IMG/VR virus record: IMGVR_UViG_3300036831_000092
Span: 1 to 58,047 of that record
Origin: a virus
Lineage: Duplodnaviria > Caudoviricetes
Direction: 5' to 3' (one strand)
DNA: 58,047 nt
The notes under the pieces are model-generated. The model saw nothing but the letters and a program-made list of their open reading frames with translations. It made no database searches and had not been told where the DNA came from. A program made the position numbers and the translations under genes. Shown here one piece after another: positions 2,577 through 58,047 of the stretch. Position 1 is the first letter of the stretch. Every line of letters starts with the position of its first letter.

Positions 2577-3041
2577 CTATACTCGCGCCGGGTTCAAATC
2601 CGCATCCCCTATTGAGCCGTCGGGCAGGAAATTCATCTGTTTGACATAGACCTGTCTGATGGATAGCCCCGTCGTGGCTAAAAACCTGTTTACGGCGGTT
2701 AAGTCCAGCGTGTCGTCTGTGAACTCCCACACGTAGAGTTTTTCAGGGAGCGGGGGCGGGACTCTCATCACGAAAGGACGCCGCCCCGCGTCCATCGCCG
2801 AACGATAAAACGTCCAGATATAGGTGAGCCGATCAACAGGCACGCCGTTCTCGCCTGCGGTGTTCACCCGGCTATGAAGCGCCGGGTAATTAAGCTTGGC
2901 CGTCATCAGGCCGGGGAAAATTACCTCAGTCTCCGAGTATCCTCCACCATATTCAGCACGAAGGTATGAGGCTGAATAATCAACCCCGATGGTGACACCG
3001 AAATTTCCTCTGTACCGGAGTTCAGGGAATGGGTAGCTCAT
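2577..3041 (-). CDS. Minor/distal tail protein (gpM-like)
   Basis: Directly after TMP with ATGA overlap; 'YGGGYSE' near N-terminus. Confidence 0.6.
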   Translation of the reverse strand: MSYPFPELRYRGNFGVTIGVDYSASYLRAEYGGGYSETEVIFPGLMTAKLNYPALHSRVNTAGENGVPVDRLTYIWTFYRSAMDAGRRPFVMRVPPPLPEKLYVWEFTDDTLDLTAVNRFLATTGLSIRQVYVKQMNFLPDGSIGDADLNPARV

Positions 3042-34706: not shown

Positions 34707-35054
34707 TTAGCTAGACGCCTCACCCGGCGCGGAACTGGAAGCCGCCGATTCGACGCCGATGGTCGCCGAGTCGGAGACGAGCGCCTTGATGCGGTCTATC
34801 TCGGCGGTCAAGTCCGGCCCTGCCGCCGGATGCGCCTTCAGGTCTTCGAGTGCTTGAATGATTGCCGCGTCCCTCTGCTTGGCCGACGCCTCGGCCTGCT
34901 CCTCTTGGGTGATTACGTCGTCCAACTGCTGCTTCTGATCTTGCTGGTTTGCCGACATTCTTTTGATCTCCTTTGAAATTGAATTTAGTTTGGCAACCGC
35001 GTAAGCGAGTGCCGCGAAGGTTGCGAGTGCCGCCAGTGTTTTTAGTGGCTTCAT
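34707..35054 (-). CDS. Membrane-anchored coiled-coil protein
   Basis: N-terminal hydrophobic helix followed by Q/E/A coil. Confidence 0.55.
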   Translation of the reverse strand: MKPLKTLAALATFAALAYAVAKLNSISKEIKRMSANQQDQKQQLDDVITQEEQAEASAKQRDAAIIQALEDLKAHPAAGPDLTAEIDRIKALVSDSATIGVESAASSSAPGEASS

Positions 35055-35073
35055 AAAAATAGGCGCGGACGCC

Positions 35074-35655
35074 CTACCGTTTCTCATCCGGCGTAAAGCG
35101 AACGCCCGCGCCGCCTACAGGAGAAGAAAGTTTCTCGTAAACCTGACGTAGCGAGTCAGCCCAAGCCTTTTGTGCTTCCGCGATTGACTCCCTCACGTCT
35201 ATCTCCAGCCTCACGTCCTGAAGTGAAAGGGCCACGTCTAAAGCTCTGTTCAGAGGCTCTAGGGCATCTTCAGGTCTTCCGGCTGCCGTGAGGACTCGTC
35301 CGACGTTGTTGTCCACCTCGGCGGCAAGCAATAAATTGCCCTTCTGCTCGTGGTAGAACCTTGAAGCCGTGTAGTGTCCTAAAGCTTTGTCCGTCTTGCC
35401 GAGCAGTTCGTATGTGCGACCCATACCGCACTCGAACTTTGCCGTCAGGGTGTCCCCATACCTGATTGCGGCGGTGTAGTGGGAGGCGAGGAGGTTCAGG
35501 GCGTCACCGGGCCGACCCGAAAGCCTCGGACTCACCGCGAGGTCTTTGACCCACCGGAGTCTCAGCCGCTCACCATTCACGGATAGCAGCCTCTCACGGC
35601 AGAACTCGGCGGCCTCGTCGTATTCCCCCTGAAGGATGAATGTCTCCCACCGCAT
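35074..35655 (-). CDS. TPR-repeat protein (start uncertain; frame open to 36114)
   Basis: TPR-like units 'MGRTYELLGKTDKALGHY' and 'NNVGRVLTAAGRPEDALEPLNRAL'. Confidence 0.75.
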   Translation of the reverse strand: MRWETFILQGEYDEAAEFCRERLLSVNGERLRLRWVKDLAVSPRLSGRPGDALNLLASHYTAAIRYGDTLTAKFECGMGRTYELLGKTDKALGHYTASRFYHEQKGNLLLAAEVDNNVGRVLTAAGRPEDALEPLNRALDVALSLQDVRLEIDVRESIAEAQKAWADSLRQVYEKLSSPVGGAGVRFTPDEKR

Positions 35656-35749
35656 CCACTCCGCGAGGTATTCCGCGTTACAATCTTCCGGGCAGGAAGG
35701 CGCGCGCCTTCCCACGTAGTCAACCACTTGAATTGAAGGAGAAAACCGA

Positions 35750-35956
35750 ATGAGACGATTACTTTCAACTGCGATACTCGTGTGTGCGCTATCAGCCATT
35801 ACACTGGCCGACGGCGGATCGGAGCAGGGCGGCAAGGCGTGCGACCCGGCCACGCAGGTCTGCACGTCCTCGACCAACACGGTTTCGGTCGCGGACGTGA
35901 TTCGCGCGGAGGTCAATGCTCTGTTGGCTTCGCTCGGCATAAGAATTAAGAAGTAA
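35750..35956 (+). CDS. Small secreted peptide precursor
   Basis: GAAGGAG RBS; signal peptide MRRLLSTAILVCALSAITLA; two Cys; amphipathic C-tail. Confidence 0.75.
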   Translation: MRRLLSTAILVCALSAITLADGGSEQGGKACDPATQVCTSSTNTVSVADVIRAEVNALLASLGIRIKK

Positions 35957-36037
35957 CTGGCCGGTCGGTACGCGCGAGGTGTCCCCGCTCTTTCCCCAAA
36001 GCAGAAACTCACTTCGACCGCGCGCCCGACCGAGAAA

Positions 36038-36850
36038 TCAAACGCCGCACATACCTTCACACTCGTTATTGAACATATTGATTTGCCCGCGATCCTCTGC
36101 CGTCGAAAGATCAACCTCTGGCAGAGGTACTAAAGAGCGGTGCAAAAAAGCCTCGCAATCAACGCCCCTTAGTCCCGTGCGGATCATTGCGTCAAACTCA
36201 ACGGCCTCCGCCCATGCCTCTGGTGCGTTGTCTTTCAGGTCGCGCCAGTATTTGTTGTCGTGATAGGGGCAAGCGACGCAGGCCGACTTCTTCGGGACGC
36301 GGTAGCCGTGAGACTCAAGCCAACGGATGCAGTCCGCGCGGCTCATACGCTTCTCAATAAGCGGGTAGCGGTTCAGTTGCCACTTGTGATTCGCGTCCCT
36401 CATGCGCGACGCTTCGTCGGTAGAAATACCTATCCACACTTCAACGGCGTCACCCTTCGGAACTCTCTCGCCTTTAGAGACTCCGAGGAGGCCGCGCAGC
36501 GCGGCCTCAAGGGGCTGAATCTTGAACTCGCGCGTACATTGTCGGCGCAGCATCGCGCCCTTCCCCTGTGGGTTGCGGACGTGGGCCGGAAGGGAGGCGA
36601 ATCGCCTCCCTTCCGTGATGGATTTGATGGTGTGAAGTTTCAGGCTACCGATGCCGACCGTCTCAATGGGGATGATGTGGTTGCCGATGTCTTTCAGATA
36701 TTCGAGGTGTTCATAAACCCACTTCGGTTCAAATTTGGTATCGGCAAAGAAGGCGCATTCCGGCACTTCATTGAAAACGCCATCAACCGCCATCAAGTAG
36801 ACGGTTGATGATTGGACGCCCGCACCTAAACTGATTGCCGTTTTCTTCAT
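36038..36850 (-). CDS. PAPS-reductase-like PP-loop protein
   Basis: SLGAGVQSS, FADT.FE, RQCT..FKI.P, KSACVACPY. Confidence 0.85.
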   Translation of the reverse strand: MKKTAISLGAGVQSSTVYLMAVDGVFNEVPECAFFADTKFEPKWVYEHLEYLKDIGNHIIPIETVGIGSLKLHTIKSITEGRRFASLPAHVRNPQGKGAMLRRQCTREFKIQPLEAALRGLLGVSKGERVPKGDAVEVWIGISTDEASRMRDANHKWQLNRYPLIEKRMSRADCIRWLESHGYRVPKKSACVACPYHDNKYWRDLKDNAPEAWAEAVEFDAMIRTGLRGVDCEAFLHRSLVPLPEVDLSTAEDRGQINMFNNECEGMCGV

Positions 36851-37299
36851 CCGCTGTTCCTCAACTCGCTCTCAACGTCCCTTCGACCAATCGGCACCAC
36901 TTCCGCCCCGGCCACACTCAGGCGTGACGAGAGCGCCGCATGTAGTTTCACCATCGCGGAGTCGGCGTCCTCCTCCGTCCCGTTGACGAAGGTGTTAATC
37001 AGGCCGTGGCAGAGGCGAGTGAGGGCTGCTTTGTCAGGCGTCTTACCCTTTCTACCTTTACCCGCGATGAGGCCCGCGTCCGATTCGAGGAGCGAGCGGA
37101 AGCCCGCGGAAGATTCAGGTTTGTGGATGCAAAGTCCCCGGTGAATGTCTCTGGCGTAGTCGAGATGGTCGGGGTGAGTCCCGGCCAGCATTCCGTAGAC
37201 GTAGGAGAGGGAGAAGCCGGTCACTTCGGCCAGTTGCTTCTGAACGCCGTCAAGGGCTTGCTGCGTGAACTCCGAAGTTGGTTTTTTAGGCTCGAACAT
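36847..37299 (-). CDS. HTH regulator (CII-like?)
   Basis: 'QLAEVTGFSLSYVYGMLAG'. Confidence 0.5.
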   Translation of the reverse strand: MFEPKKPTSEFTQQALDGVQKQLAEVTGFSLSYVYGMLAGTHPDHLDYARDIHRGLCIHKPESSAGFRSLLESDAGLIAGKGRKGKTPDKAALTRLCHGLINTFVNGTEEDADSAMVKLHAALSSRLSVAGAEVVPIGRRDVESELRNSG

Positions 37300-40434: not shown

Positions 40435-40683
40435 TCATGCTGCTTCGACTTCGCGCGAGTATTTAGACTTGGGGCTGGCTGAAGGCTCGCGCCCGACCTT
40501 GTTGACGGACACTCCGAGATATTCGGCCAACTTCACCCTGATTTCCGGGTAAACGTGATAGCCCCTGCGGTGGATGACACGGGAGACGACTTCGGGAGTG
40601 ACCCCCCACAGCCGAGCAAGCCCTGCGATGGTGTCGCCCCTTTTCAGTATCTTGACCTTGATTTCTAAAGGCGAAAGTGACAT
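40435..40683 (-). CDS. Cro/Ner-like HTH protein
   Basis: 'TIAGLARLWGVTPEVVSRVI'; divergent from repressor; AAAGGA RBS. Confidence 0.75.
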   Translation of the reverse strand: MSLSPLEIKVKILKRGDTIAGLARLWGVTPEVVSRVIHRRGYHVYPEIRVKLAEYLGVSVNKVGREPSASPKSKYSREVEAA

Positions 40684-40725
40684 TGTTTTCCTTTGTGTGT
40701 CTTGTTCATGCAAGACACGAGAAGG

Positions 40726-40755
40726 AGTATATGGTTATTAAATAACCAATGTCAA
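40726..40755 (-). promoter_or_regulatory. Leftward early promoter with palindromic operator
   Basis: TTGACA-N18-TATACT containing TGGTTATTAAATAACCA (40732-40748). Confidence 0.85.
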
Positions 40756-40764
40756 GAAGAAAAT

Positions 40765-41406
40765 ATGTCCTGGAAATCCCTAGAAGAAAAAAAGAGGTCA
40801 AAAGAAATCGCCGATAAGGTGAGCGGGGTGGTGGAAGACTATCAAAAACAATATTTTGCGGAGAATCATATTCGCATATCAGTTCGCGAACTAGAAAGGC
40901 GAATGGACATGACTCACCCCATGTTAGATAACATAATGAAAAATAAGAATAATCTGCTTGATGACCGCTCTAGATGGTCTTTAATTAAGATTGGCGAATA
41001 TTTCGGAACATATTTTGACGAGGAAGAACTAAAGCCTTATATAGATACTTCAAAGGCGAGAGCGCGGGAGACCAAATCCGAAAAACCGCCTTTACCTGAG
41101 GCGAAAGAGGAGTCGAAAGATAAACTCGGAATTACCCGCAGCGATGTTAAGGGAGTTGCCGATGTCCAGGTGATTGGCAGACCTGTTGTACGCGCTTTGG
41201 TAAAAGAGCAAAATGAGGGGCTTGGGATCACAATAAGAACGGCGTCCGTCATTACTTTCATTAAAGCAATGGCTAACGAAAGGGGCGAGTCGATTGATAA
41301 TATAGGCGAAACACTTATGCTGCGTGGAATGCGAATTTTCCAGCAACAGGCGCAAATAGACAAACTGCGTAAACCCAAGAAGCCGCCTAAATCTAAAAGG
41401 AAGTGA
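40765..41406 (+). CDS. Putative immunity repressor
   Basis: HTH 'SVRELERRMDMTHPMLDNIM'; position between two operator-bearing promoters; no S24 peptidase motif seen. Confidence 0.65.
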   Translation: MSWKSLEEKKRSKEIADKVSGVVEDYQKQYFAENHIRISVRELERRMDMTHPMLDNIMKNKNNLLDDRSRWSLIKIGEYFGTYFDEEELKPYIDTSKARARETKSEKPPLPEAKEESKDKLGITRSDVKGVADVQVIGRPVVRALVKEQNEGLGITIRTASVITFIKAMANERGESIDNIGETLMLRGMRIFQQQAQIDKLRKPKKPPKSKRK

Positions 41407-41415
41407 GGTTAGTCC

Positions 41416-41832
41416 ATGAACTCTTGCCCCTGGTGTGGCAGACCCTCCCGTCGGCCATACAAACTGTGCGATGATTGTTACCAAAGAGCCATAAGCTTGC
41501 CTACGGTACCCGTGGAGGAGTTCGACCGTTTGCCATATGGCATTATTGAGTTGGACGCATCTGGCAAGGTACTGGCATTCAACCGTTTTGAGGCAACCCG
41601 TTCCTGTTGCCGGCCTCAAGATGTTATCGGCAAAAACTTCTTCCGCGACATTGCGCCCTGCACTAACGTACAAGAGTACGAAGGGCGATTCAGAAGCTTT
41701 CTCAGTTCCGATGAGGTCGAGGAAGAGTTTGATTTTACCTACCCCTTTGAGCCAGACACAGTGGTGCACATCGTTTTCGTCAAGGTGCTCGACAGTTGTG
41801 TGCTGATAGTCAGTAAAGAAAAGGTGGCCTGA
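41416..41832 (+). CDS. Photoactive yellow protein-like PAS protein with N-terminal Zn ribbon
   Basis: 'LPYGIIELD..G..LAFN..E..P..VIGKNFFRDIAPCT' matches PYP signature including chromophore Cys. Confidence 0.85.
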   Translation: MNSCPWCGRPSRRPYKLCDDCYQRAISLPTVPVEEFDRLPYGIIELDASGKVLAFNRFEATRSCCRPQDVIGKNFFRDIAPCTNVQEYEGRFRSFLSSDEVEEEFDFTYPFEPDTVVHIVFVKVLDSCVLIVSKEKVA

Positions 41833-46895: not shown

Positions 46896-47108
46896 ATGCG
46901 AGAGGAAAGAAAAAGACTGAGTACAGCCAAAGAGATCGCGGAGTTGCTTAACACTTCGCGCCGGATGGTTCACTACTTCCGAAAGCGCCACGGTATGCCC
47001 GCCTGTCGGTTCGGCCCGCGCACCTATCGGTTCGACAGGGATGATGTTCTCCGCTGGAGCGAGAACTTCAACACGAAAGGCTCGCGGCCTGACCTCCGGG
47101 CGGTGTAG
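46896..47108 (+). CDS. xis: Excisionase (HTH_17-like)
   Basis: 'STAKEIAELLNTSRRMV..GMPA..YRFDRDDV..W'; upstream of integrase. Confidence 0.8.
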   Translation: MREERKRLSTAKEIAELLNTSRRMVHYFRKRHGMPACRFGPRTYRFDRDDVLRWSENFNTKGSRPDLRAV

Positions 47109-47154
47109 GATAGCGCCCTCCGGCAGCACCGGGGCGCGGGAAAGGACTACCCGC

Positions 47155-48210
47155 ATGGCAGTCAAAGAGCGACCGTTCAAGGGAAGCGGGCACTGGCATT
47201 TTGATTTTCGGGTGTCAGGCGCGCGCTACCGCGGCACGATACCGGAAGCCCGCACTAAGCCTCAAGCTAAACAGGCTGAGGCGAAACTGCGGACTCTCAT
47301 CTTCGAGGGCAAGTACGAGAAGGCCGCAAAGCCCATGACCTTCTCGGAATTTTTGGAAGGGCACTACAAAGACTACTGCAAGACGCACGTCAAGGCGTGG
47401 CGGCAGATGTTTAATTGCGCCGCGTTAGCCTGCGATTTCTTCGCGGGCAAACACCTCTCGGAAATCTCGGCCTTCCACGTAGAGAAGTACAAGGTCGAGC
47501 GAATAAGGACGCCGACCATAAAGGGCACGACACGCAAGGCCAACACCCTGAACCACGAACTGATGGCGCTCTCGCACGCTTTGAACCTGGCCGTCAGGCT
47601 CGGATTCTTAAAGGCCAATCCCGCGTCGCGGGTCAGGCGTCCGAAGTGGGAGCGCAGGGAGAGGTATTTGACTGCGGAGGAAGAAAGCCGACTCCGCGAA
47701 GTGATTAACGCGGGCCGCGACCCGTGGATCGGCGACCTGACTCTCTTCGCTTTAAACACCGGCATGAGGCAGTCGGAGATACTTCAACTTGAATGGTCGC
47801 GCGTTGACTTCTCCAGAGGGGTAGTTAAGGTTACACAGACCAAGACCTGCACCGCCAGAGAAGTACCCTTAAATGCCGAAGCCCGGAGCGTGCTGGAGGC
47901 GCGTGAAGGTGGAATAAGGTTCGTCTTCGCCGAATGCGGAATGTTGTTGCACCGGGCGACCCTTAGTCGGAGGTTTAAGGCTTTGAAGAAAGAGGCCGAG
48001 ATAGAGGACTTCCACTTCCACGATCTTCGTCACACCACCGCGACCAAGATGCTTGACGCCGGAATCAGGGAGAGTGTTATCGCCAGAGTTTTGGGCCACT
48101 CATCAACGGCAATGACGGCCATTTACGCCCACGTCAAGGACGAACAGACGAAGGCCGCCGTGGAATCTCTTGGTCACGTTCCGGTCACAGCGGAAAGAAA
48201 AACCGCTTGA
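47155..48210 (+). CDS. int: Tyrosine integrase
   Basis: TGMRQSE, FHDLRHT, LGHSS, YAH catalytic motifs. Confidence 0.95.
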   Translation: MAVKERPFKGSGHWHFDFRVSGARYRGTIPEARTKPQAKQAEAKLRTLIFEGKYEKAAKPMTFSEFLEGHYKDYCKTHVKAWRQMFNCAALACDFFAGKHLSEISAFHVEKYKVERIRTPTIKGTTRKANTLNHELMALSHALNLAVRLGFLKANPASRVRRPKWERRERYLTAEEESRLREVINAGRDPWIGDLTLFALNTGMRQSEILQLEWSRVDFSRGVVKVTQTKTCTAREVPLNAEARSVLEAREGGIRFVFAECGMLLHRATLSRRFKALKKEAEIEDFHFHDLRHTTATKMLDAGIRESVIARVLGHSSTAMTAIYAHVKDEQTKAAVESLGHVPVTAERKTA

Positions 48211-48343
48211 TTTCTTGGAGAAGTTGCTAAGCGCAACATTCTCTCATAGTATGTCGCACCACGAAGGCGCGCGCAAATCGGTCGGCGCGGGCGCGTTCGT
48301 CGCACGGAAGTTCAGCGAATCTTATTTCCACGGGAGGCCGCCC

Positions 48344-48907
48344 TTGTCTTCTTCCGCCATCGCCCCTTCGGAGTTCAGCAACCCCAACCTCGAACCGCTC
48401 TTCACGGCGGAGCAGATTCAGGCGCGCGTCGCGGAGATGGGTGCAGCGATAGCGCGCGACTACGCGGGCGGGACGCCGCTTCTGGTCGGCGTGCTCAAAG
48501 GCGCGTGCATCTTCCTGAGCGACCTGGTGCGCGCCACAGACCTGCGGCTCGGCGTCGAGTTCATGGCGATTTCAAGCTACGGCATGGGCATGCGCTCGTC
48601 GGGCGAGGTGAGAATCGTGAAGGACTTGGACGTGCCGGTCGAGGGGCGCGACATCCTCATCGTCGAGGACATCGTGGACACAGGGCTGACGCTCTCCTAC
48701 CTGATCGCCAGCCTCCACGGGCGCGGCGCGAAGAGCGTCAAACTTGCCGCCCTGCTCGACAAGTGGGAGCGGCGCGAGCGCGAGGTGACGATTGATTACT
48801 GCGGCTTCCGCATCCCGGACGCCTTCGTCGTCGGCTACGGGCTGGACTTCGCCGAGCGCTACCGCAACCTGCCATATATCGCCATTCTAAAAGACCCGAA
48901 CGCGTAA
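48344..48907 (+). CDS. hpt: Hypoxanthine phosphoribosyltransferase
   Basis: VLKGA, IVEDIVDTGLT, FVVGYGLD; GGAGG RBS before TTG 48344. Confidence 0.95.
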   Translation: MSSSAIAPSEFSNPNLEPLFTAEQIQARVAEMGAAIARDYAGGTPLLVGVLKGACIFLSDLVRATDLRLGVEFMAISSYGMGMRSSGEVRIVKDLDVPVEGRDILIVEDIVDTGLTLSYLIASLHGRGAKSVKLAALLDKWERREREVTIDYCGFRIPDAFVVGYGLDFAERYRNLPYIAILKDPNA

Positions 48908-48988
48908 ATCGTCAATCGTCAAACGTGAATAGCAGTCGAGCGGCGCACGCAGCCTGCGTGGTAAGCCGTGGGCGGCGACTTTTTCCGT

Positions 48989-50185
48989 TTACGATTGGTG
49001 ATTGACGATTGACGAAAGGAAACTTTCGCCCGCGCCGAGCTTGAGGCCGAAGTTGTCGGCGATGGTCTGGCCGATGTCGGAGAGCGAGGCGCGGTCGCCG
49101 AGGTTGACTCCGGCGCGTGCGCTCTTGCCGTAGACGAGGAGCGGGGCGTACTCGCGCGTGTGGTCGGTGCCGCGGTAGGTTGGGTCGTTGCCGTGGTCGG
49201 CTGTGATGACGAGGAGGTCTGTGTCGTTCATCACCGCTTCGATTTCGGGGAGGCGCGCGTCGAAGTGCTCCAGCGCGCGGGCGTAGCCTTCCGTGTCGCG
49301 GCGGTGGCCGTAGAGCATGTCGAAGTCAACGAGGTTCGAGAAGACGAGGCCGCGCGTTTGGCCTTGAAGCGCGGCGATAGTCTCGTCAATGGATTGATCG
49401 TTGTTCTTGCCGGGCAGTTCCCTCGTGACGCCCGCGGCGTCGTAGATGGAACTTATCTTGCCGACGGCGACAACGTCTAACCCCGCGCCGGAGAGCACGG
49501 GCAGGAGCATTTCGCGCGGCGGCGCGACCGCGTAGTCGTGCCGGTTCTCAGTCCGCCGAAAAGCGCCCGGCTCTCCGACGAAAGGGCGCGCGATGACGCG
49601 GCCCACCTCGTGCTCGCCGCGCAGAATGTTTCGCGCCGTCTCGCAAATCTCGTAGAGACGCCTGAGGGGCACGACCTCTTCGTGCGCGGCGATCTGAAAG
49701 ACCGAGTCGGCGGACGTGTAGATGATGGGCTTGCCCGTGCGGACGTGCTCCGCGCCGAGTTCCTTGATGATCTCCGTGCCCGACGCAGGCGTGTTGCCGA
49801 GGACGCCGGGCACGCCCGTCTCACTGACGAAGCGTTCGATGATCTCCGCGGGGAAGCCTTCGGGGTAGGTCGGGAAGGCGCGCTCCAGAATGATGCCGGC
49901 CATCTCCCAGTGGCCCGTCGTCGTGTCCTTGCCGTTCGAGCGCAGGGCGCAGCGACCGAACGAGCCGCGCGGCGCGGCCACGGGCGGCACGCCCGCGAGC
50001 GTGCGGATGTTGCCCAGACCCCAGCTTCGCAGGTTCGGCAACTTCACTTCGCGCGACTCAAGGACGTGGCCGAGCGTGTCCGCGCCCGCGTCGCCCCACG
50101 CGGCTGCGTCCGGCATCTCGCCAATGCCGAGGCTGTCGAGGACGATCAGAGCGATGCGCTCGAAGGCGCGTTTGTCGTTCGTCAT
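48989..50185 (-). CDS. deoB: Phosphopentomutase
   Basis: LDSLGIG, GKDTTTGHWE, YTSADSVFQIAAHE, ITADHGNDP, DHTRE. Confidence 0.96.
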   Translation of the reverse strand: MTNDKRAFERIALIVLDSLGIGEMPDAAAWGDAGADTLGHVLESREVKLPNLRSWGLGNIRTLAGVPPVAAPRGSFGRCALRSNGKDTTTGHWEMAGIILERAFPTYPEGFPAEIIERFVSETGVPGVLGNTPASGTEIIKELGAEHVRTGKPIIYTSADSVFQIAAHEEVVPLRRLYEICETARNILRGEHEVGRVIARPFVGEPGAFRRTENRHDYAVAPPREMLLPVLSGAGLDVVAVGKISSIYDAAGVTRELPGKNNDQSIDETIAALQGQTRGLVFSNLVDFDMLYGHRRDTEGYARALEHFDARLPEIEAVMNDTDLLVITADHGNDPTYRGTDHTREYAPLLVYGKSARAGVNLGDRASLSDIGQTIADNFGLKLGAGESFLSSIVNHQS

Positions 50186-50212
50186 TTTTTCTTCGTTGTC
50201 CTTCTGAAGCGG

Positions 50213-51454
50213 TCAACCCCGCGGCGCGCGGTAGCCGTCGCGCGCGCGCACCTGCGCGTCACGCACGCCGCGCACGGTGACGCGGATGTTGCGGAAAGCG
50301 CCGTCGCGCGTCTTGTTGGTCGGGTAGTAGCCGAGGCTGTACTGCGTGCCGATGTCTTCGGCGACATGACGGAAGGCGCGCTGCGCGTCGCGGAGGTCGG
50401 CGACGGGGAAGGTCTTGCCGCCGGACTCGCGCGCAAGCTGGTTCATCTCCTGTCGCGCGATTTGATAGAGAGTGCGGCTCGCGTGCATGCGCTCGAACTG
50501 ACCCATCCGGCAGAAGTCGGAGAAGTCTGCGGCGTCCGCGCCCGGCGCGATAACGCGCCGGTAGCGTTCGAGCTGCGCGTGCGAAAGCCGCAAAGCGCCG
50601 TCGTCCTGGCAGTCTTCCATCAAACGATCTTCGACGTACTCCTCCGTGTTGACCTCGACGAAGTAAGAGACCAGCCCGGCGCGCTTCAACATCTCCCGCG
50701 CGCTCTCGAAGTCCGACTCGCTCGTCGAGTCAACGCCGTCCGTGAGCGCGACGAGCGCGCGACGACCGCGCAGCGCATCTCTCGGCCCGTCGCGGAAGAC
50801 TTCCTTTGTGACCCTTTCGAGGCTGTCGTAGAAGGGCGTGCCGTTGGACGCGCCGATGTTCTCGATGGCCTCCTGCAACTCCTTGCGGTCGTCGGTGAGC
50901 GGCGTTTTGACTTCGACGGTGGCGAGTTTCTCGCTCCCGTCCTGCTTGGTGTCGAAGGCGAGGACGGCGACGCGGTCGCCGGGCCGGAGCGCCTCGACGA
51001 AGGCGAGCGCGGCGCGGCGTATGAGTCCCACCTCCTCGCGCGTCGAACCCGACGTGTCCAGAAGCAGCGCGACCTCGAAGGGCGCTTCGGTCGTCGCGAA
51101 GTTGGCGATCTTTTGCGGTCGCCCGTCCTCGAATATCTGGAAGTCTTCGGCGCGCAGGCCCGTCAGGGGCCGCCCCGCCCCGTCCGTGACGACCGCCGGG
51201 ACGGAGACGAGTTGCGTCTCGACGCGCACCACGTCGCCCTCGTCAATCTCCTCGCCCGCGCCGTCCGCGCCCTTCGCGGAAGACTGTTTGGCGGCGGGCG
51301 TGGGCGTCGCGTCGGGCTGCTGCTGCGCGCCGACCCTGCGCGGGCGCTGATGCGTCTCGTCCTGCGCAATGCCGCCCGGCGCAGCGGCGAAGATGACGAG
51401 GACGATGAGCGAAGTGAGCGCGCAGGCTTTTGCGCTTGCCGGAAACTTCAGCAC
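50213..51454 (-). CDS. Secreted VWA-domain protein (acidobacterial VWFA type)
   Basis: Signal peptide; DTSGS MIDAS, TDGVD, QYSLGYYP. Confidence 0.88.
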   Translation of the reverse strand: MLKFPASAKACALTSLIVLVIFAAAPGGIAQDETHQRPRRVGAQQQPDATPTPAAKQSSAKGADGAGEEIDEGDVVRVETQLVSVPAVVTDGAGRPLTGLRAEDFQIFEDGRPQKIANFATTEAPFEVALLLDTSGSTREEVGLIRRAALAFVEALRPGDRVAVLAFDTKQDGSEKLATVEVKTPLTDDRKELQEAIENIGASNGTPFYDSLERVTKEVFRDGPRDALRGRRALVALTDGVDSTSESDFESAREMLKRAGLVSYFVEVNTEEYVEDRLMEDCQDDGALRLSHAQLERYRRVIAPGADAADFSDFCRMGQFERMHASRTLYQIARQEMNQLARESGGKTFPVADLRDAQRAFRHVAEDIGTQYSLGYYPTNKTRDGAFRNIRVTVRGVRDAQVRARDGYRAPRG

Positions 51455-51894
51455 GGTCTTACACTCTCGTTAACGAAACTTCAACGTCAAATATAGCCGC
51501 AAACGCGCGCGGACGGAAAGGGCGGAGGCGATGCCCGTCATCGGGAGACTGGACAAGCAGGTTGACGAACTAATCATCTCCCCTGTCTCGAAGAGGCGGC
51601 GCGACGAAGAGCTGCCACCGGAACGGCAACGCGGCGAAGACTCGCCCGCGGCTTCAACACACACGCCGTCGGAAGGTGAGAGTTCCGCGAAGACGGACGA
51701 GTTGCCCGTCTGGCTTTTATAGAAGAATGAAGGCGAAAGGATGAGGCGAACCAGATTGCGTTCCTTCATCCTTGCCGCGCGGGTCTATCTTGTCAGGCAC
51801 GTCGGCGCGAGACACAGACGATTCATCTCATCCCCGGCCACTCCTCCCCGCAGCGCGCCTTCGGATCATCCGGTGCTCACCTTGTCCCGCACGC

Positions 51895-51923
51895 TTGACA
51901 CTTCGGCGCGCTTCTCTTAAATT
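51895..51923 (+). promoter_or_regulatory. tRNA operon promoter
   Basis: TTGACA-N17-TAAATT. Confidence 0.65.
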
Positions 51924-51947
51924 GTGACTTCGGTTGCGGTTCTTTTC

Positions 51948-52022
<75 letters not shown>

Positions 52023-52055
52023 GACATACCCACGGTTTGAAAATTTAAGGTTCTC

Positions 52056-53300
<1,245 letters not shown>

Positions 53301-53427
53301 AATTCACTGATAATACAATATTTCACTCTTGGGATAAAGACTTTTTCTATCCTAGTAGGGCTTTGCCGATGTGATGAATAACGTAGCTGACAATGAATTC
53401 TGCCCTTTTCCAAATTCGTTTAAGCAC

Positions 53428-53727
53428 CTAATCGAGTTTAATGATCTCACCTTCCTCAACTACCATTCTTTCGCGCATAGGCTTGTCTTTGAGCGGCGCA
53501 TAAGCACCTTGTTCCCTTGCCACGCTCATAAGCCTTTCCTGAAGGTTTTCTAGTTGCCTCTTAACGTCCAAGTATTTGTTTAGGAGGGAGACTGGAACCG
53601 TAAAGGTTTTTCTATTGTTGTTAGCGGGCGTCCGGTTGATACTGAACGTCTTGTAGCCTTCATTGATGACTGCTAATTCAACTTTTTCTTCCGTATGTTC
53701 TTCTTCCCTTCGCGGTAATGACGACAT
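53428..53727 (-). CDS. Hypothetical protein
   Basis: ORF track; start uncertain. Confidence 0.45.
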   Translation of the reverse strand: MSSLPRREEEHTEEKVELAVINEGYKTFSINRTPANNNRKTFTVPVSLLNKYLDVKRQLENLQERLMSVAREQGAYAPLKDKPMRERMVVEEGEIIKLD

Positions 53728-54043
53728 AAGTGATGAATGGATAATTATCTACAAACAGCTTGAGCTTTAATCTCCATATCGGGGTAGCGAAGCCCTTATA
53801 TTCCCAAACCTGTTCCGTTCCGTTTTTCAGCTTTACGAAGAAATCAACTTTGTGATTGCAGATTTGAGCACCATGCAGGCCATATAGCGGAAAGTTTTTT
53901 TGTGGCTCTACCTTGAGAAGTTTGCCCGACTTAATAAGCAGATCAATTTCTTGTGCAAGACCCGCCTCGCCCTTACTGTCATAGAGTCGGCCATTGTACT
54001 CAGTTCTCTTATTGAAGAATTTAGTGCGTCGTTGGTAAGACAA
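53678..54043 (-). CDS. DUF1064-like PD-(D/E)XK protein
   Basis: 'K..NKRT..NG..YDSKGEA', 'VDF', 'EYKGF.T...LK.KL'. Confidence 0.8.
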   Translation of the reverse strand: MSYQRRTKFFNKRTEYNGRLYDSKGEAGLAQEIDLLIKSGKLLKVEPQKNFPLYGLHGAQICNHKVDFFVKLKNGTEQVWEYKGFATPIWRLKLKLFVDNYPFITYVVITAKGRRTYGRKS

Positions 54044-54054
54044 ACGTGTGAGGG

Positions 54055-54387
54055 TTAATTATTTTCTTCGGTTACATTTCCGTCCAGTGTGCCGTTCTCG
54101 ATGCTGACAGATCCACACTCCGGGCATTGAGCATCAATTAAGGCGAGATTGGATTTGAACGAGTGGCGGCAGTCGGTACAAAGATAATCTCTTACCTTTC
54201 TTGGCCGCCCCTTGGCCTTCACTTTGATTGTGTATAGGCTTTTCCCCTTCTTCCGGCCCCTGCGCTTTTTAACAGGCTCCGGGGCTTCTTCAATCAATCG
54301 CCCCCCGACGAGATTTAAGAGCTGCGATTCGAGGGATTCCAACTGCCTGCACAAATCGCGCACCATCTCAACTTTTGTTTTGTCCAT
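54055..54387 (-). CDS. Zn-ribbon/AT-hook-like hypothetical protein
   Basis: KRRGRKK, KGRPRK, CxxC..CPECGS. Confidence 0.6.
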   Translation of the reverse strand: MDKTKVEMVRDLCRQLESLESQLLNLVGGRLIEEAPEPVKKRRGRKKGKSLYTIKVKAKGRPRKVRDYLCTDCRHSFKSNLALIDAQCPECGSVSIENGTLDGNVTEENN

Positions 54388-54839
54388 TATTGAGTTGTTA
54401 ATACTTTGAACTTATGAACAAAGGACTGACTTAAAAAGACGTGTTTGGGAACTAAGGCGGCAGGTATCTTGAATTCTCCGACAAGCTTCTTTACTGGATA
54501 GCCATCAGCGAACGGTAGGAGGTCTTTAAGAAACATGGAGTATAAGCTTACGTCACCGTTTTCTGGCAGGCCGTATATCCAAATGGGAGAGATGGATTGA
54601 TGGAGTGCGGCCGGTTCAATACACACGTTGCCGGTCGCCTCAGAAAGCTCGTCATACTTCATTTCGAGCTTACAGAGTTCGCCGTTGATCCGAACTTCCC
54701 TATCCCAGCCTTTCTTATCTCGGTACTTCAGGTTGTCGCTATCAATAACCTCGCAGCCTTTTTCTTTAAGCACCTTTTCAACCTCACTTTCAAACCACCT
54801 CCCTACTTTTTTTCTATCTTTGAAATAGGCCGACTCCAT
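54387..54839 (-). CDS. PD-(D/E)XK nuclease-like protein
   Basis: 'G..FE', 'WD..EMKYD..TGNVCIE'. Confidence 0.7.
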   Translation of the reverse strand: MESAYFKDRKKVGRWFESEVEKVLKEKGCEVIDSDNLKYRDKKGWDREVRINGELCKLEMKYDELSEATGNVCIEPAALHQSISPIWIYGLPENGDVSLYSMFLKDLLPFADGYPVKKLVGEFKIPAALVPKHVFLSQSFVHKFKVLTTQ

Positions 54840-55118
54840 AGTTCATTTGTTATTTATTACCTCTCCTCTTCCCATACTCTGAATAGTTGTGCTTAGTGAT
54901 CCGCGAGGACGTTCCATAAGCCCATCCGATTTCCCATCCGTTCTTGTTTAAGGTTCTCTTGTGAACCGGGCAGCGCAGGCGTTCTAGCCTGTTCCTGTTT
55001 GGCTTCTTGCCGGTATAGCGATAGCAAACAGTAAGCGGCTTGCCGCACTTCTTGGGATGATGAAACTTTGGGTGTTTGTATTCTTCTTCTGGGGTCAAAG
55101 AAGGCGGGTGGTTACTCG

Positions 55119-55194
55119 TGGCGGGTGGTTTGGGAATCGAACCCAACGCGGCTGCTTTTGGAGAGCGGCCAGCCTATCCTTGGCGTTCCCACCC
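55119..55194 (-). tRNA. Degenerate tRNA-Trp(CCA)
   Basis: 76 nt, CCA at 34-36, TTCGATT T-loop, G73, CCA end; mismatches at 7:66 and 28:42, atypical D arm. Confidence 0.7.
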
Positions 55195-55264
55195 TTTATT
55201 ACAGGATAGCAAGCCTATTAGAATGGTCAATGCCAGTTATCCACAGCCTTATGGAAGAATGATT

Positions 55265-55822
55265 ATGAGAATAAGTAATGATGCTAAAGAGCTAGCCAAG
55301 CTGAAATACATTCGAGGCGCGCAAGAGATTTCAAGCAAGCACTACGCGAATATTGAGCGATTTGAACGGACGATGCCGCGAGGTGGCATGATGAAAGGCG
55401 CGATAGACAAAGAGCATTTGCAGATGATCCAAGAACTAGCTGACTTATATTTGGAAGCCCACCTTGAAATGTTTGTAGCTGAAGGGATATTGCCCGATAC
55501 AAACGATATGAGGGAGTTCCGGGCCGAGATTGAAAATATAGTCAGCCGCAGATCAGGCGGTGAATTTTGGAGTCCGAGGCCATCAACTAACTCAACTCTG
55601 TCTTTCCTTCCACAAAGCATCTATATCAACTTCGCCAACAGGGTAAAGCAAATGGAGCTTGAAGCCAGGGTACACAAGGCCGCGCCAGAGCAACCGGCAA
55701 GCACCAGCTATAACACAACGATTCATGGCCCCAATTACGGTAACATTCAGCAGGGGGGTCAAGGTAATACTCAATCTGTAACCCGCGCCGGGTCAGAAGA
55801 GGAAGGCGATGAGGAAAATTGA
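55265..55822 (+). CDS. Tandem paralog 1 with C-terminal N/Q/G (RHIM-like) motif
   Basis: MRISNDAK..YNTTIHGPNYGNIQQGGQGNTQS. Confidence 0.8.
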   Translation: MRISNDAKELAKLKYIRGAQEISSKHYANIERFERTMPRGGMMKGAIDKEHLQMIQELADLYLEAHLEMFVAEGILPDTNDMREFRAEIENIVSRRSGGEFWSPRPSTNSTLSFLPQSIYINFANRVKQMELEARVHKAAPEQPASTSYNTTIHGPNYGNIQQGGQGNTQSVTRAGSEEEGDEEN

Positions 55823-56369
55823 TTTAAGAATTAGCGCAGCCAGGAAGAAGCTGGCAGACAGCGAGTATAAGAAACAGGCTATCGAGATTGATAGGCGTTA
55901 TTCGCACATCAAGCTTAATGATATTACCTTTCACATGATGCGCGAAAAGGAGAGCCGTCAATATTTTCAAATCTACGCAGAGTGGATGAAGATAAAAGTG
56001 CGTGCAAGGCTACAAACCTACTTAGAAGCTTTCAAGGAAGAAGGGGTAATACCGGACGATGCTGACCTAAGCAATATGAGCTGGGCTTTTCAGGGCGTGA
56101 TAGAAGACTTTACCGCTTCCCTCCCTCAAGAATTAAGCTCAGCATTGCAGCAGCTTGGGAGAATGCAGGTAATCGAGGACGCCCGGAGAGATATTGACAT
56201 CTTTGCCCAAAAGATGAGCATTGAACAAATGAGGGCAGAGGCCCAGAAGCCCCAGCCGCCGCATGGGAATATCTACAATATGTACATAGGAGAAAATCGC
56301 GGGCCTATCCAGCAGGGCGGCAGCAGCAACACCCAAAGCACCAGCGGGAGCAATGATGAAACTAAGTGA
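55809..56369 (+). CDS. Tandem paralog 2
   Basis: ..YNMYIGENRGPIQQGGSSNTQS. Confidence 0.8.
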   Translation: MRKIDLRISAARKKLADSEYKKQAIEIDRRYSHIKLNDITFHMMREKESRQYFQIYAEWMKIKVRARLQTYLEAFKEEGVIPDDADLSNMSWAFQGVIEDFTASLPQELSSALQQLGRMQVIEDARRDIDIFAQKMSIEQMRAEAQKPQPPHGNIYNMYIGENRGPIQQGGSSNTQSTSGSNDETK

Positions 56370-56939
56370 AGATGCGAAGAAATTAGCTGAAGCCCTAATG
56401 AGCAAAGACCATTATCAGGTAGCTCTTTGGGCAGAAGAAGACATCAGAAGAGTGAGAGCCGCGAGAACACAATCAAACCCGCAATTCAATCAATTAATCG
56501 CCCATCACGAGGAGAGTATTAGAAGGACTTTCAAATACATAATTAACGCTTACGTTGAAGGTTACAAGATGGACAACTCGTTGATGGACGATGAAGATAG
56601 ACATGAAATTATTGAGTTCATTAGAAGCATGATTAATCGGCGGCTCGAACATATTACCAACTCAGTGGTGGGCCGTGACTTTATCATCCATATACCGGCG
56701 AAAAAATCCCTAACCTAGACGCTCAATTGGCTGGTCACTTCGACAGGTTGGTAGGAGAGGCAGCGGTAGAATTAAACTTGGTTCAGAACCAAATGGTAAT
56801 GGATCAGAAACGACGAGAGCGTGAAGAAAGATTAAGGGCTAACCAAATAAACATCTACGGCCACAACTACGGCAATATCCAACAGGGCGGCAGCGGTAAT
56901 ACTCAAAGTACCAGCGAGGGCGGCGATGAAGTTAAGTGA
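56356..56939 (+). pseudogene. Tandem paralog 3, frameshifted near 56690
   Basis: Two ORF halves align to paralog 4 if one base is restored; ends INIYGHNYGNIQQGGSGNTQS. Confidence 0.75.
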
Positions 56940-57504
56940 AGATGCGAGTAAGTACGCGGAATCAATTTACAGAAAAGTTTTTACGCAATGCGCTATTGAT
57001 GGCGAAACAGAGCGTCGGAAAATCCGGGCGACTGCGACCCCAAGTAATCCTAATATCCCACAGATGTCAGATCACTTCGTTAGCCTCACAAAGCGGCTGG
57101 TTGATGCGCGGCTTGATTCTTACGTCCAAGCATACAAGCAGGACGGCCTGCTCATTGACGAAGAAGACAAGGACGAAATTATCGAGGCGCTTAGGAAGAT
57201 CATCAAAAACAATATAATGTGGGTAACTACTGACTCCACTCTCCGAGAATTCAGACTGCCCAATACCGGCCAGCTTATCCCCAACATGGAGTCCTACATG
57301 ACCGCCCGCCTTGAAAGAATACTTGGGGAAGCTGCGGTTGATTTAGATTTAGCCAGGAATCAAATGGTAATGGAGCGGAAGAATAGGAAAACTGAACTGC
57401 CGCCCACCCATTACAACATTCATGTCTATGGAGATAATCACGGCAATATTCAACAAGGCGGAGAGAATAACAGTCAGACCATTAACCCCAAGGAGGACGA
57501 GTAA
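56926..57504 (+). CDS. Tandem paralog 4
   Basis: MKLSEDAS..YNIHVYGDNHGNIQQGGENNSQT. Confidence 0.8.
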   Translation: MKLSEDASKYAESIYRKVFTQCAIDGETERRKIRATATPSNPNIPQMSDHFVSLTKRLVDARLDSYVQAYKQDGLLIDEEDKDEIIEALRKIIKNNIMWVTTDSTLREFRLPNTGQLIPNMESYMTARLERILGEAAVDLDLARNQMVMERKNRKTELPPTHYNIHVYGDNHGNIQQGGENNSQTINPKEDE

Positions 57505-57510
57505 CTTCCG

Positions 57511-57951
57511 TTAGGTCAAGCTACCGATGAACTGCCAAAACTGATTCCATTCAGTATTGCGTCTTGAACACTGCAAGATCACACCGCCAGTCTTAAAGAA
57601 ATTCAACAGGCTACCCATCTGTATAATGTCGTTATCTAGCTTCTTAGCAAGCAATAGGTACGGCACAAGGAGCTTGATTACTTCGGCGTGCGCCAGCGAG
57701 GTTTTTAACGGTGAGGCGTAAATCTTATTAAGCTTCGGAATCTCATCAAACAGCGTCCGGGTAGCCGGAAACTGTCCGGCCTCACACGCTATAAAAATCA
57801 TCTTCTGCGGATTGAAGGGTAAGACCCAATGCGCGAAGGCTTCCCACGTCAGAAGCATATCAGGCGCTATGCTGATGACCTCGCGGTTGCTGTGCGCTAT
57901 AACGACAACAAGCTTGATGGAACTGTATTTGCCTTTGTAGTCACCAAACCA
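57511..57951 (-). CDS. Possible CHAT/caspase-fold protease fragment
   Basis: Frame open to 57951; 'LVVVIAHS' and 'MIFIACEAG' resemble His/Cys dyad strands. Confidence 0.4.
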   Translation of the reverse strand, partial: WFGDYKGKYSSIKLVVVIAHSNREVISIAPDMLLTWEAFAHWVLPFNPQKMIFIACEAGQFPATRTLFDEIPKLNKIYASPLKTSLAHAEVIKLLVPYLLLAKKLDNDIIQMGSLLNFFKTGGVILQCSRRNTEWNQFWQFIGSLT

Positions 57952-58047
57952 CTATGCACTGAAAGTGCATAGGTTGCCGTGGGACTGAAAGTCCCACATC
58001 ATTCGAGGATGAACCGGTCGCTTTCACGGTTCATCCTCGAATGATGT
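57952..58047. repeat. Cluster of three hairpins at window end
   Basis: CTATGCACT-GAA-AGTGCATAG; GTGGGACT-GAA-AGTCCCAC; perfect 21-bp IR 57996-58016/58027-58047. Confidence 0.8.

Follow-up and report, generated by a model that had tools for sequence, protein, structure and literature searches.

The window analysed here is the entire virus record IMGVR_UViG_3300036831_000092 (Caudoviricetes), 58,047 bases in length, and the locus of concern is a pair of small genes that lie head to head within its minus-strand early operon. One, on the plus strand, encodes a 68-aa pre-peptide; the other, on the minus strand, encodes a protein built of tetratricopeptide repeats (TPRs). A first-pass annotation, made from the sequence of the window, had proposed this pair as a candidate for peptide communication of the RRNPP or arbitrium type. 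From the data described below it was concluded that the pair is not a member of either family, and it is tentatively read here as a two-gene cassette of an exported peptide and a minimal TPR protein. The features of the locus are collected in Table 1.

Table 1. Features at and beside the peptide and TPR genes, in coordinates of the window.
Feature	Position	Strand	Basis or remark
Gene of the TPR protein (217 aa if started at GTG 35727, 213 aa if at GTG 35715)	35074..35727	-	Pfam TPR families; stop at 35074
TPR solenoid, nine helices (four TPRs and a capping helix)	35125..35676	-	AlphaFold2 model
Conserved 8-nt block, GTGGTTGA on the minus strand	35720..35727		Contains GTG 35727; 8/8 identical in L114
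Open minus frame antisense to the peptide gene, judged non-coding	35728..35940	-	Coding in the public 271-aa call P0002; omitted by the calls for the window and G277
Shine-Dalgarno block AAGGAGAA	35736..35743	+	8/8 identical between the window and L114, with equal spacing to the ATG
68-aa pre-peptide gene: signal peptide, Gly-rich linker, Cys loop, hydrophobic tail	35750..35956 (including stop)	+	Open reading frame with ATG start
Predicted Sec signal peptide, residues 1-20, cleavage after T-L-A	35750..35809	+	Authors' heuristic
Cys loop C31-x6-C38 of the mature peptide	35840..35863	+	Window sequence; C-x5-C at the matching place in L114
Imperfect long hairpin	35963..36032		Between the stops of the peptide gene and the PAPS-reductase-like gene
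Upstream neighbour gene, 150 aa from a conserved Met	36847..37299	-	Context only; counterpart in L114 at 2380-2808 (-)

The plus-strand gene was found much as it had been annotated, with a strong ribosome-binding site: an AAGGAG core at 35736-41 stands 8 nt before the ATG of the open reading frame (ORF). A simple regular expression detected Shine-Dalgarno (SD)-like motifs at 14 of the 39 presumed gene starts of the window, and several of these were of the AAGGAG type, from which it was deduced that the host uses such sites. Signal peptides were scored in all six frames with a heuristic of our own rather than with SignalP. By this measure the peptide ORF had the top signal-like score among 1660 candidate starts in the window, which agrees with the Sec signal proposed earlier. 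A lax filter passed 30 of the 1660 starts as signal-like, two of them carrying an SD-like motif, and the combination of an ATG with such a motif was present only in the peptide ORF. The mature peptide is Gly-rich (5 of 48 residues, and 14 of 57 in the one homolog described below), with a single Cys pair and a hydrophobic C-terminal segment. This tail had been described as amphipathic; it is hydrophobic rather than clearly amphipathic, the best helical moment over 18 aa (0.37) being located elsewhere in the peptide. Readings of the product as a PEP-CTERM protein, a lipoprotein or a spanin were considered on the sequence and dropped, as no lipobox precedes a Cys, a P-E-P motif is missing and the homolog does not keep the tail. 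A search among 1.84 billion representative proteins returned only the peptide itself, while matches in the ESM Atlas did not exceed 0.86 and are regarded as leads only. Neither the peptide nor the TPR protein had a match among GenBank phages.

The minus-strand gene had been recognised as a TPR gene whose 5' end lies beside the peptide gene, and both points were sustained by the 22-nt gap between the start codons and by the Pfam scan, in which TPR_12 matched at 7.5e-11 (42.5 bits against a cut-off of 30.1), TPR_1 at 1.5e-8 and TPR_7 at 9.8e-8. As the annotation had also stated, no helix-turn-helix (HTH) is visible: no HTH family was matched in the protein by Pfam, and none was present in the AlphaFold2 model. 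The Asn-Asn motif noted earlier stood in part, since the second Asn is invariant in three homologs, at a position usual for the TPR consensus, and the first is not. On the sequence, GTG 35727 is the likeliest start, with GTG 35715 as the alternative. The public call for this gene begins at ATG 35655 and gives 193 aa. The first modelled helix begins 7 residues before that Met, and 21 of the 29 aligned residues directly upstream of it are identical to a public protein, P0002 (271 aa, from a 2470-bp contig). It was therefore deduced that the true start lies upstream of 35655 and that the 193-aa call is too short.

The structure was modelled for the reading of 288 aa. Helices were obtained at residues 89-272, with a mean predicted local distance difference test (pLDDT) score of about 64-94 by ten-residue block, while residues 1-87 scored below 50 and were mostly coil with one short helix of low confidence. 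The onset of the solenoid at residue 89 of this numbering lies about 17 residues after GTG 35727. The A helices carry conserved polar residues, e.g., R-W-x-K-D and N212. The protein is predicted to be a minimal, stand-alone, cytoplasmic TPR protein with neither a DNA-binding nor an enzymatic part. Comparisons with known structures pointed to a generic fold. Pins and LGN gave the best sequence matches in the PDB (Pins 5a7d_B at E 5e-6), and no RRNPP receptor was among the 26 PDB matches at E up to 1. Foldseek ranked kinesin-light-chain-like and LGN repeats first, with RapF at rank 31. In a structural aligner, LGN (3sf4_B) gave Z 16.3 with a root-mean-square deviation (rmsd) of 6.6 over 184 aligned residues, followed by RapF (Z 14.0, rmsd 5.0, 194 aligned), NprR (Z 13.7, rmsd 4.2, 158 aligned) and PlcR (Z 13.6, rmsd 6.0, 174 aligned). 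Judged from the model, RapF, NprR and PlcR appear to fall within the generic TPR cloud, below LGN. PADLOC and NCBIfam gave nothing specific for the TPR protein.

The major comparative data came from two homologs of the TPR protein. P0002 was the sole homolog initially found among 5.8 billion proteins. A profile search of 401 genomes of the host class then gave one ortholog (E 1.7e-26), in G277, an uncultured Acidobacteriota metagenome-assembled genome (MAG). The family thus has three members (the window, P0002 and G277), and a further protein at E 8e-7 was assigned as a generic TPR protein. Searches of 401 genomes each at the family and phylum levels again returned G277 alone; as six first-look candidates were scored per genome, orthologs may have been missed. 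At the family level, 74 of the 401 genomes passed E 1e-10, and the 73 other than G277 were matches to repeat segments, nearly all within open frames of more than 400 aa. The G277 locus (L114, the same as L163) was also the only one encoding relatives among the 20 viral and 11 genome stretches retrieved with a DNA pattern built from both conserved 8-nt blocks.

In L114 the peptide is encoded by an ORF of 77 aa (2075-2308) that begins M-K-R-L-L and continues with a hydrophobic run of 17 residues, S-L-A, a Gly-rich stretch, C-x5-C and a hydrophobic end; by the same heuristic it has the top signal-like start of 1358 in the 39.8 kb around the G277 locus. The features shared by the two peptides are the M-[K/R]-R-L-L signal peptide, the [S/T]-L-A cleavage site and C-x5/6-C. 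The junction between the genes is kept more strictly than its surroundings: the AAGGAGAA block is identical in the two loci, with 29 of 60 nt identical otherwise in the 60 nt upstream of the ATG, and the spacer from the GTG within GTGGTTGA to the peptide ATG is 22 nt in both. Within 747 aligned nt of both genes there are four identical runs of at least 8 nt, three of them in the 5' region. Over the first 23 peptide codons, identity was 10, 15 and 7 of 23 at plus-frame positions 1, 2 and 3, respectively.

The G277 prophage is a distant relative of the element in the window, with identities of 56% for the Ner-like gene, 41-44% for the gene of unassigned family upstream of the pair, 30% for the TPR gene, 34% for a gene related to photoactive yellow protein (PYP), 31% for a 3'-phosphoadenosine 5'-phosphosulfate (PAPS)-reductase-like gene (located elsewhere in G277) and 27% for the integrase. 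In G277 the Ner-like gene is two genes ahead of the pair and a methyltransferase gene comes next after it; in the window some 5 kb of the operon precede the pair, which has the PAPS-reductase-like gene before it and a gene for a signal-anchor coiled-coil protein behind it. Since the surroundings differ and the junction is identical, it was deduced that the pair stayed together while the neighbourhood changed. The homologs are thus not unlinked, the head-to-head layout being the same in both members for which DNA is available; the third, P0002, is compatible with it at the protein level, and its linkage is presumed. A paralog search within G277 gave one weak match (E 0.003) with no adjacent TPR gene. 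A separate observation in G277 concerns an 85-aa exported-looking protein (L175, 1402-1659, minus strand; contig G277:C7) with three G-x-x-x-T-G repeats and a hydrophobic Leu-rich end. It is a very weak look-alike of the G277 peptide (E 0.58) and has no TPR gene beside it.

In the minus frame of the TPR gene no stop interrupts the reading up to 36114 (346 codons), a stretch that takes in the whole peptide ORF, and it had therefore to be asked whether the peptide gene is real. The opposing explanation is that the 68-codon ORF is spurious, that the TPR protein is 241-288 aa long with a disordered N-terminal tail rich in Ser, Pro and Ala, and that the look of a signal peptide is a by-product. Such an arrangement would need no promoter inside the operon. 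The frame is open over the peptide gene in all three family members, for 266 codons in L114, where the opposite ORF lies in the same frame relation, and P0002 aligns with the window minus frame through the whole antisense region with an identity about as high as in the remainder of the protein. The third codon positions of the two frames coincide, plus positions 1 and 2 lying opposite minus positions 2 and 1, respectively. Long ORFs antisense to a gene commonly occur in this relation, and the window shows many of them. Public gene calls for the family disagree accordingly in length (proteins P0001, P0002 and P0004): 193 aa from ATG 35655, which cuts the first helix, 184 aa from a TTG in G277, and 271 aa running antisense through the peptide gene. 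The antisense stretch is left out of two of these three calls, those for the window (193 aa, together with the 68-aa ORF) and for G277.

The DNA of the P0002 locus was not found in genome, viral or metagenome collections, either by locus search or with degenerate DNA patterns, and the frame opposite P0002 was for that reason reconstructed from the protein. This frame would allow a start, basic residues at two positions, a hydrophobic stretch, a small-x-small cleavage site, Gly-Gly and a pair of Cys at a distance of five residues, and the number of stops expected in it is about 0.45. Within the overlap, the window differs from P0002 at minus position 1 in 7 cases and at minus position 2 in 16, compared with 47 and 47 in the remainder of the protein. 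The mean BLOSUM score in the overlap was 2.18 for the minus frame and, for the plus frame, 1.69 (expected) or 2.93 (best case). In four control blocks the corresponding ranges were 1.24-2.96 for the minus frame and 0.10-1.63 (expected) or 1.00-2.63 (best case) for the plus frame. In the comparison with P0002, the plus frame is relatively better conserved in the overlap than in the control blocks. Over the same DNA the codon-usage score per codon was 0.194 for the plus frame versus 0.030 for the minus frame. These tests, made in lieu of homolog DNA, all lean to the plus frame, and none is decisive.

The more telling data were those from L114, which keeps the ATG, the 8-nt SD block and its spacing, the signal-peptide pattern, the Cys loop and the 22-nt gap. 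The SD block covers silent positions of minus-frame Ser-Pro codons, which would not be held by a constraint acting on the minus-strand protein only. The modelled tail is mostly disordered coil (pLDDT 23-43 by ten-residue block), and no SD sequence precedes either ATG 35940 or ATG 35799. On the strength of the features retained in L114, the peptide gene is taken to be real, which the sequence comparison makes very probable, and a spurious origin of the ORF is considered highly improbable.

The explanation favoured for the locus, tentatively and at a little under an even chance, is that the two genes form a genuine cassette, known to date from temperate phages of Acidobacteriota only, in which an exported Cys-loop peptide is combined with a minimal TPR protein and the two are probably coupled through expression. 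Its parts are of unequal standing. It is well supported, from the sequence features, that the small gene would be translated from a strong SD site into a pre-protein with a Sec-type signal peptide, and equally that its start codon lies 22 nt from the TPR start, facing away, and that the TPR protein is little more than four TPRs and a cap. In the proposed mechanism, the small protein would be exported by Sec and cleaved after [S/T]-L-A, the C-x5/6-C disulfide loop would form in the periplasm, and the peptide would act in the cell envelope. The TPR protein would act via its concave groove on a protein or peptide. Since the peptide gene runs counter to the early lytic operon and overlaps the TPR gene in its start region, the two products are probably expressed in opposite phage states: the peptide would be made from its own promoter while the operon is silent, and the TPR protein would be expressed along with the early lytic genes. 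The TPR protein and the peptide may also be linked as receptor and ligand.

Several points weigh against this cassette reading. The codon-position tests are weak, both for the differences from P0002 given above (7 versus 16, control 47 versus 47) and for the counts of 14/10/10 of 23 versus 79/78/57 of 161. Translation of the long TPR form is possible, as the minus frame is open in all three members. The family consists of these three only, and shared ancestry alone could explain the linkage. No convincing SD sequence was found before any candidate TPR start, including GTG 35727 and GTG 35715, and the scans of the window and of G277 gave neither a promoter-like nor a terminator-like site for the peptide gene, whose independent transcription is therefore assumed. 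The envelope role of the peptide is likewise a supposition, the search of 1.84 billion representative proteins having returned only the peptide itself.

The annotation had placed the pair with the RRNPP or arbitrium systems, and this assignment was not sustained. As given in PMC10075063, the RRNPP signature comprises five features, namely, a small propeptide, a Sec (SPI) signal, the receptor length, TPRs and adjacency. The same text gives receptors of 250-500 aa (285-473 aa for validated ones), propeptides of 10-100 aa by default (21-50 aa for validated ones) and a distance of -50 to 191 bp between the receptor and propeptide genes (PMC10075063). The peptides of 68 aa (window) and 77 aa (L114) lie within the default range and above the validated range; both ORFs carry a Sec signal by the heuristic (the top of 1660 and of 1358 starts, respectively). 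TPRs are indicated by the TPR_12 match above cut-off and by the modelled four repeats and cap, and in both loci the putative start codons are divergent and 22 nt apart. The receptor length differs, at 213-217 aa (193 and 184 aa in the public calls). A receptor of 241-288 aa would need a gene that extends across the peptide gene in part or in full; as 250 aa would require the peptide gene to be swallowed, the length of an RRNPP receptor and the peptide gene exclude each other.

RRNPP receptors carry an N-terminal effector domain, either an HTH or a Rap-type helical bundle. None was found ahead of the repeats, either by Pfam or in the AlphaFold2 model. In the exported product, conservation falls on the Cys loop and not on a short linear C-terminal pheromone, and as read from the sequence this loop does not fit the usual picture of a short linear pheromone re-imported by an oligopeptide permease. 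In the arbitrium layout an HTH receptor is followed directly downstream by the peptide gene, beside the lysogeny module. Here there is no HTH, the genes are divergent, and the pair lies away from the lysogeny module, with distances of some 5 kb to the Cro-like/repressor switch (where the Cro-like gene occupies 40435-40713) and some 11 kb to the integrase. Because of the short TPR protein, the missing effector domain, the apparently generic TPR fold, the Cys loop and this distance from the switch, it was concluded that the pair belongs to neither the RRNPP nor the arbitrium family.

A relation in function alone is a separate matter. In that explanation, of Rap-like peptide sensing, the peptide would be trimmed outside the cytoplasm, a fragment would re-enter through an oligopeptide importer and bind the TPR groove, and the TPR protein would release or capture a phage or host partner, tuning the early programme or the choice between lysis and lysogeny by the density of phages or lysogens. 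Four of the five features of the RRNPP signature (PMC10075063) are present at the locus. The pairing is kept while the partners diverge (TPR proteins 31-51% identical, mature peptides barely alignable), the fold neighbours LGN/Pins and kinesin light chain (KLC) have been solved with bound peptides according to the titles of the structures, and the A helices carry conserved polar residues. The points on the other side are the short receptor, below both the signature and the validated ranges, with neither an HTH nor a Rap-type N-terminal domain, and the lack of any special structural closeness (RapF, NprR and PlcR all scoring below LGN). Moreover, the Cys loop is conserved in the peptide while the C-termini differ in character, the peptide of a diderm host would need to cross the outer membrane or be trimmed behind it, and some 5 kb separate the pair from the switch. 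Rap-like sensing is on balance regarded as unlikely.

A third explanation dispenses with re-import, as both products begin in the cytoplasm: the TPR protein would act on the unexported pre-peptide or protect against the peptide, as a chaperone or holdase, an export regulator, or the immunity partner of a Gly-rich, disulfide-looped, bacteriocin-like product. The tight conservation of the cassette and the composition of the mature peptide (its Gly content, single Cys pair and hydrophobic C-terminal segment) are in keeping with it. The likeness to bacteriocins is a putative one, no family match for a chaperone, immunity or bacteriocin role was obtained in Pfam, PHROG, PADLOC or NCBIfam, and the opposite orientation within a lytic operon speaks against co-expression. 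This explanation is deemed quite improbable. The cassette reading set out above, with coupling through expression, remains the tentative preference.

The context of the pair was established by PHROG and Pfam scans. The element has a siphovirus-type layout, with tail, tape measure, head, portal and terminase genes on the minus strand from 381 to about 21,900. These are followed by a long early operon on the same strand, with methyltransferase, ParB-like and other genes, that reaches up to the Ner/Cro-like winged-HTH gene 40435-40713. From this gene onward a plus-strand block extends to an excisionase-like gene and then the integrase (47041-48210). The all-minus operon around the pair, as annotated, was borne out by these assignments, in which the neighbours of the TPR gene have phage families or no match and none has an HTH family in Pfam or PHROG. 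Past the integrase, host-type genes of 64% G+C were found. One of them, at 48989-50185, shows 66-83% identity to genes of Pyrinomonadaceae and other Acidobacteriota MAGs; 597 of the 600 matched stretches in this search were relatives, of which the best 80 were used. Because of this Acidobacteriota-like flank, the element is judged to be an integrase-carrying prophage of a diderm Acidobacterium with a Pyrinomonadaceae-like flank, and the diderm host surmised in the annotation is thereby upheld. The remainder of the window (48170-58047) holds, past the integrase, host-type genes for a phosphoribosyltransferase, a metalloenzyme-superfamily protein and a von Willebrand factor type A (VWA) protein, and then a second element, of 47% G+C, that carries an integrase of its own on the minus strand (52077-53300) along with a Holliday-junction-resolvase-like gene.

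Directly downstream of the TPR gene, the product of the minus-strand gene 34707-35087 has a signal anchor or signal peptide and, after it, a coiled-coil-like region rich in Gln and Glu. The first ATG of this gene and the TPR stop overlap by 14 nt, and the G277 locus contains no homolog of it. On the other side of the pair, the minus-strand PAPS-reductase-like gene (36038-36850) matched phrog_424 (1.3e-39) and the PADLOC SspD model (5.2e-15), from which it was deduced to be of the DNA-modification type and not of sulfur metabolism. In 28 loci with PAPS-reductase-like relatives, neither the TPR protein nor the peptide was encoded, and the same was true of each of 10 other proteins of the window. 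The product of the next gene upstream (36847-37299) is 41-44% identical to that of the gene directly upstream of the pair in L114, and both end L-R-N-[S/A]-G. It had no match in Pfam, PHROG, PADLOC or NCBIfam, and its structure model was unusable (mean pLDDT 45). The hairpin beyond the peptide gene gave weak fold z-scores of -1.65 (plus) and -1.56 (minus), and no matching hairpin signal was seen in L114 (z -0.03).

An observation at the lysis-lysogeny switch concerns the plus-strand gene 41416-41832, which lies directly after a putative repressor-side gene (40693-41406). It encodes a 138-aa protein with an N-terminal Cys-x2-Cys pair motif and a PYP-type PAS domain. Matches were obtained to PYP/Ppr chains in the PDB (E 1.4e-18 to 1e-15), to Pfam PAS (8.5e-5) and to NCBIfam photo_yellow (7e-24, below its cut-off), and a homolog of 34% identity stands at the matching place in the G277 prophage. 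The protein may be a light or small-molecule sensor providing input to the switch. No pairing of PYP with phages was found in a limited search of the literature.

Phage peptide communication (arbitrium and phage Rap-Phr) has so far been described in Firmicutes (PMC9765709 and PMC10075063). A limited literature search found no such system in diderm phyla. If the unlikely case of Rap-like sensing were true, phages would communicate by peptides beyond the Firmicutes as well, and the receptor would be much smaller than all those known: a protein of four TPRs, devoid of an effector domain, would read a fragment of a Cys-loop peptide and set the early lytic programme or the lysis-lysogeny choice. 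A conserved cassette in phages of a diderm soil phylum would offer a small, synthesisable test case of whether such signalling exists elsewhere. Even if no signalling takes place, the locus defines an undescribed family of exported mini-proteins and a conserved head-to-head layout with overlapping start regions. It also illustrates how far gene callers can disagree, with 193, 184 and 271 aa given for one protein family.

Of the known systems, the best sequence and fold matches to the TPR protein are LGN/Pins and KLC (Pfam TPR_12), which have the same repeat length class and a groove for extended peptides. They are eukaryotic scaffolds with more repeats, and the likeness is one of generic fold only, with no functional link. 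Rap-Phr resembles the pair in having an HTH-less TPR protein beside the gene of a small Sec-exported pre-peptide, on a temperate phage, such as phi3T; action in the present case would be through protein contacts, if any. Rap is about 375 aa long, with an N-terminal helical bundle and more repeats, and the Phr gene lies downstream on the same strand. In contrast, the pair has a protein of 213-217 aa with four TPRs and a cap, divergent genes, a conserved Cys loop and a diderm host, whereas Rap-Phr is found in Firmicutes hosts and yields short linear C-terminal Phr pheromones. The AimR-AimP-AimX system of Bacillus phages is likewise found on temperate phages and pairs a TPR-type protein with a small secreted peptide; according to PMC6458997, AimR is a DNA-binding transcription factor. 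The pair differs in having no HTH, in not lying beside the switch or integrase and in that no AimX-like target was identified. In Rgg-SHP and PrgX-PrgQ, transcription of the peptide gene leads away from the 5' region of the receptor gene or is antisense to it, and the divergent or overlapping peptide gene of the present pair is similarly placed. These systems differ from it in their HTH receptors and Firmicutes hosts, and their peptides use PptAB and not Sec, as stated in PMC10075063.

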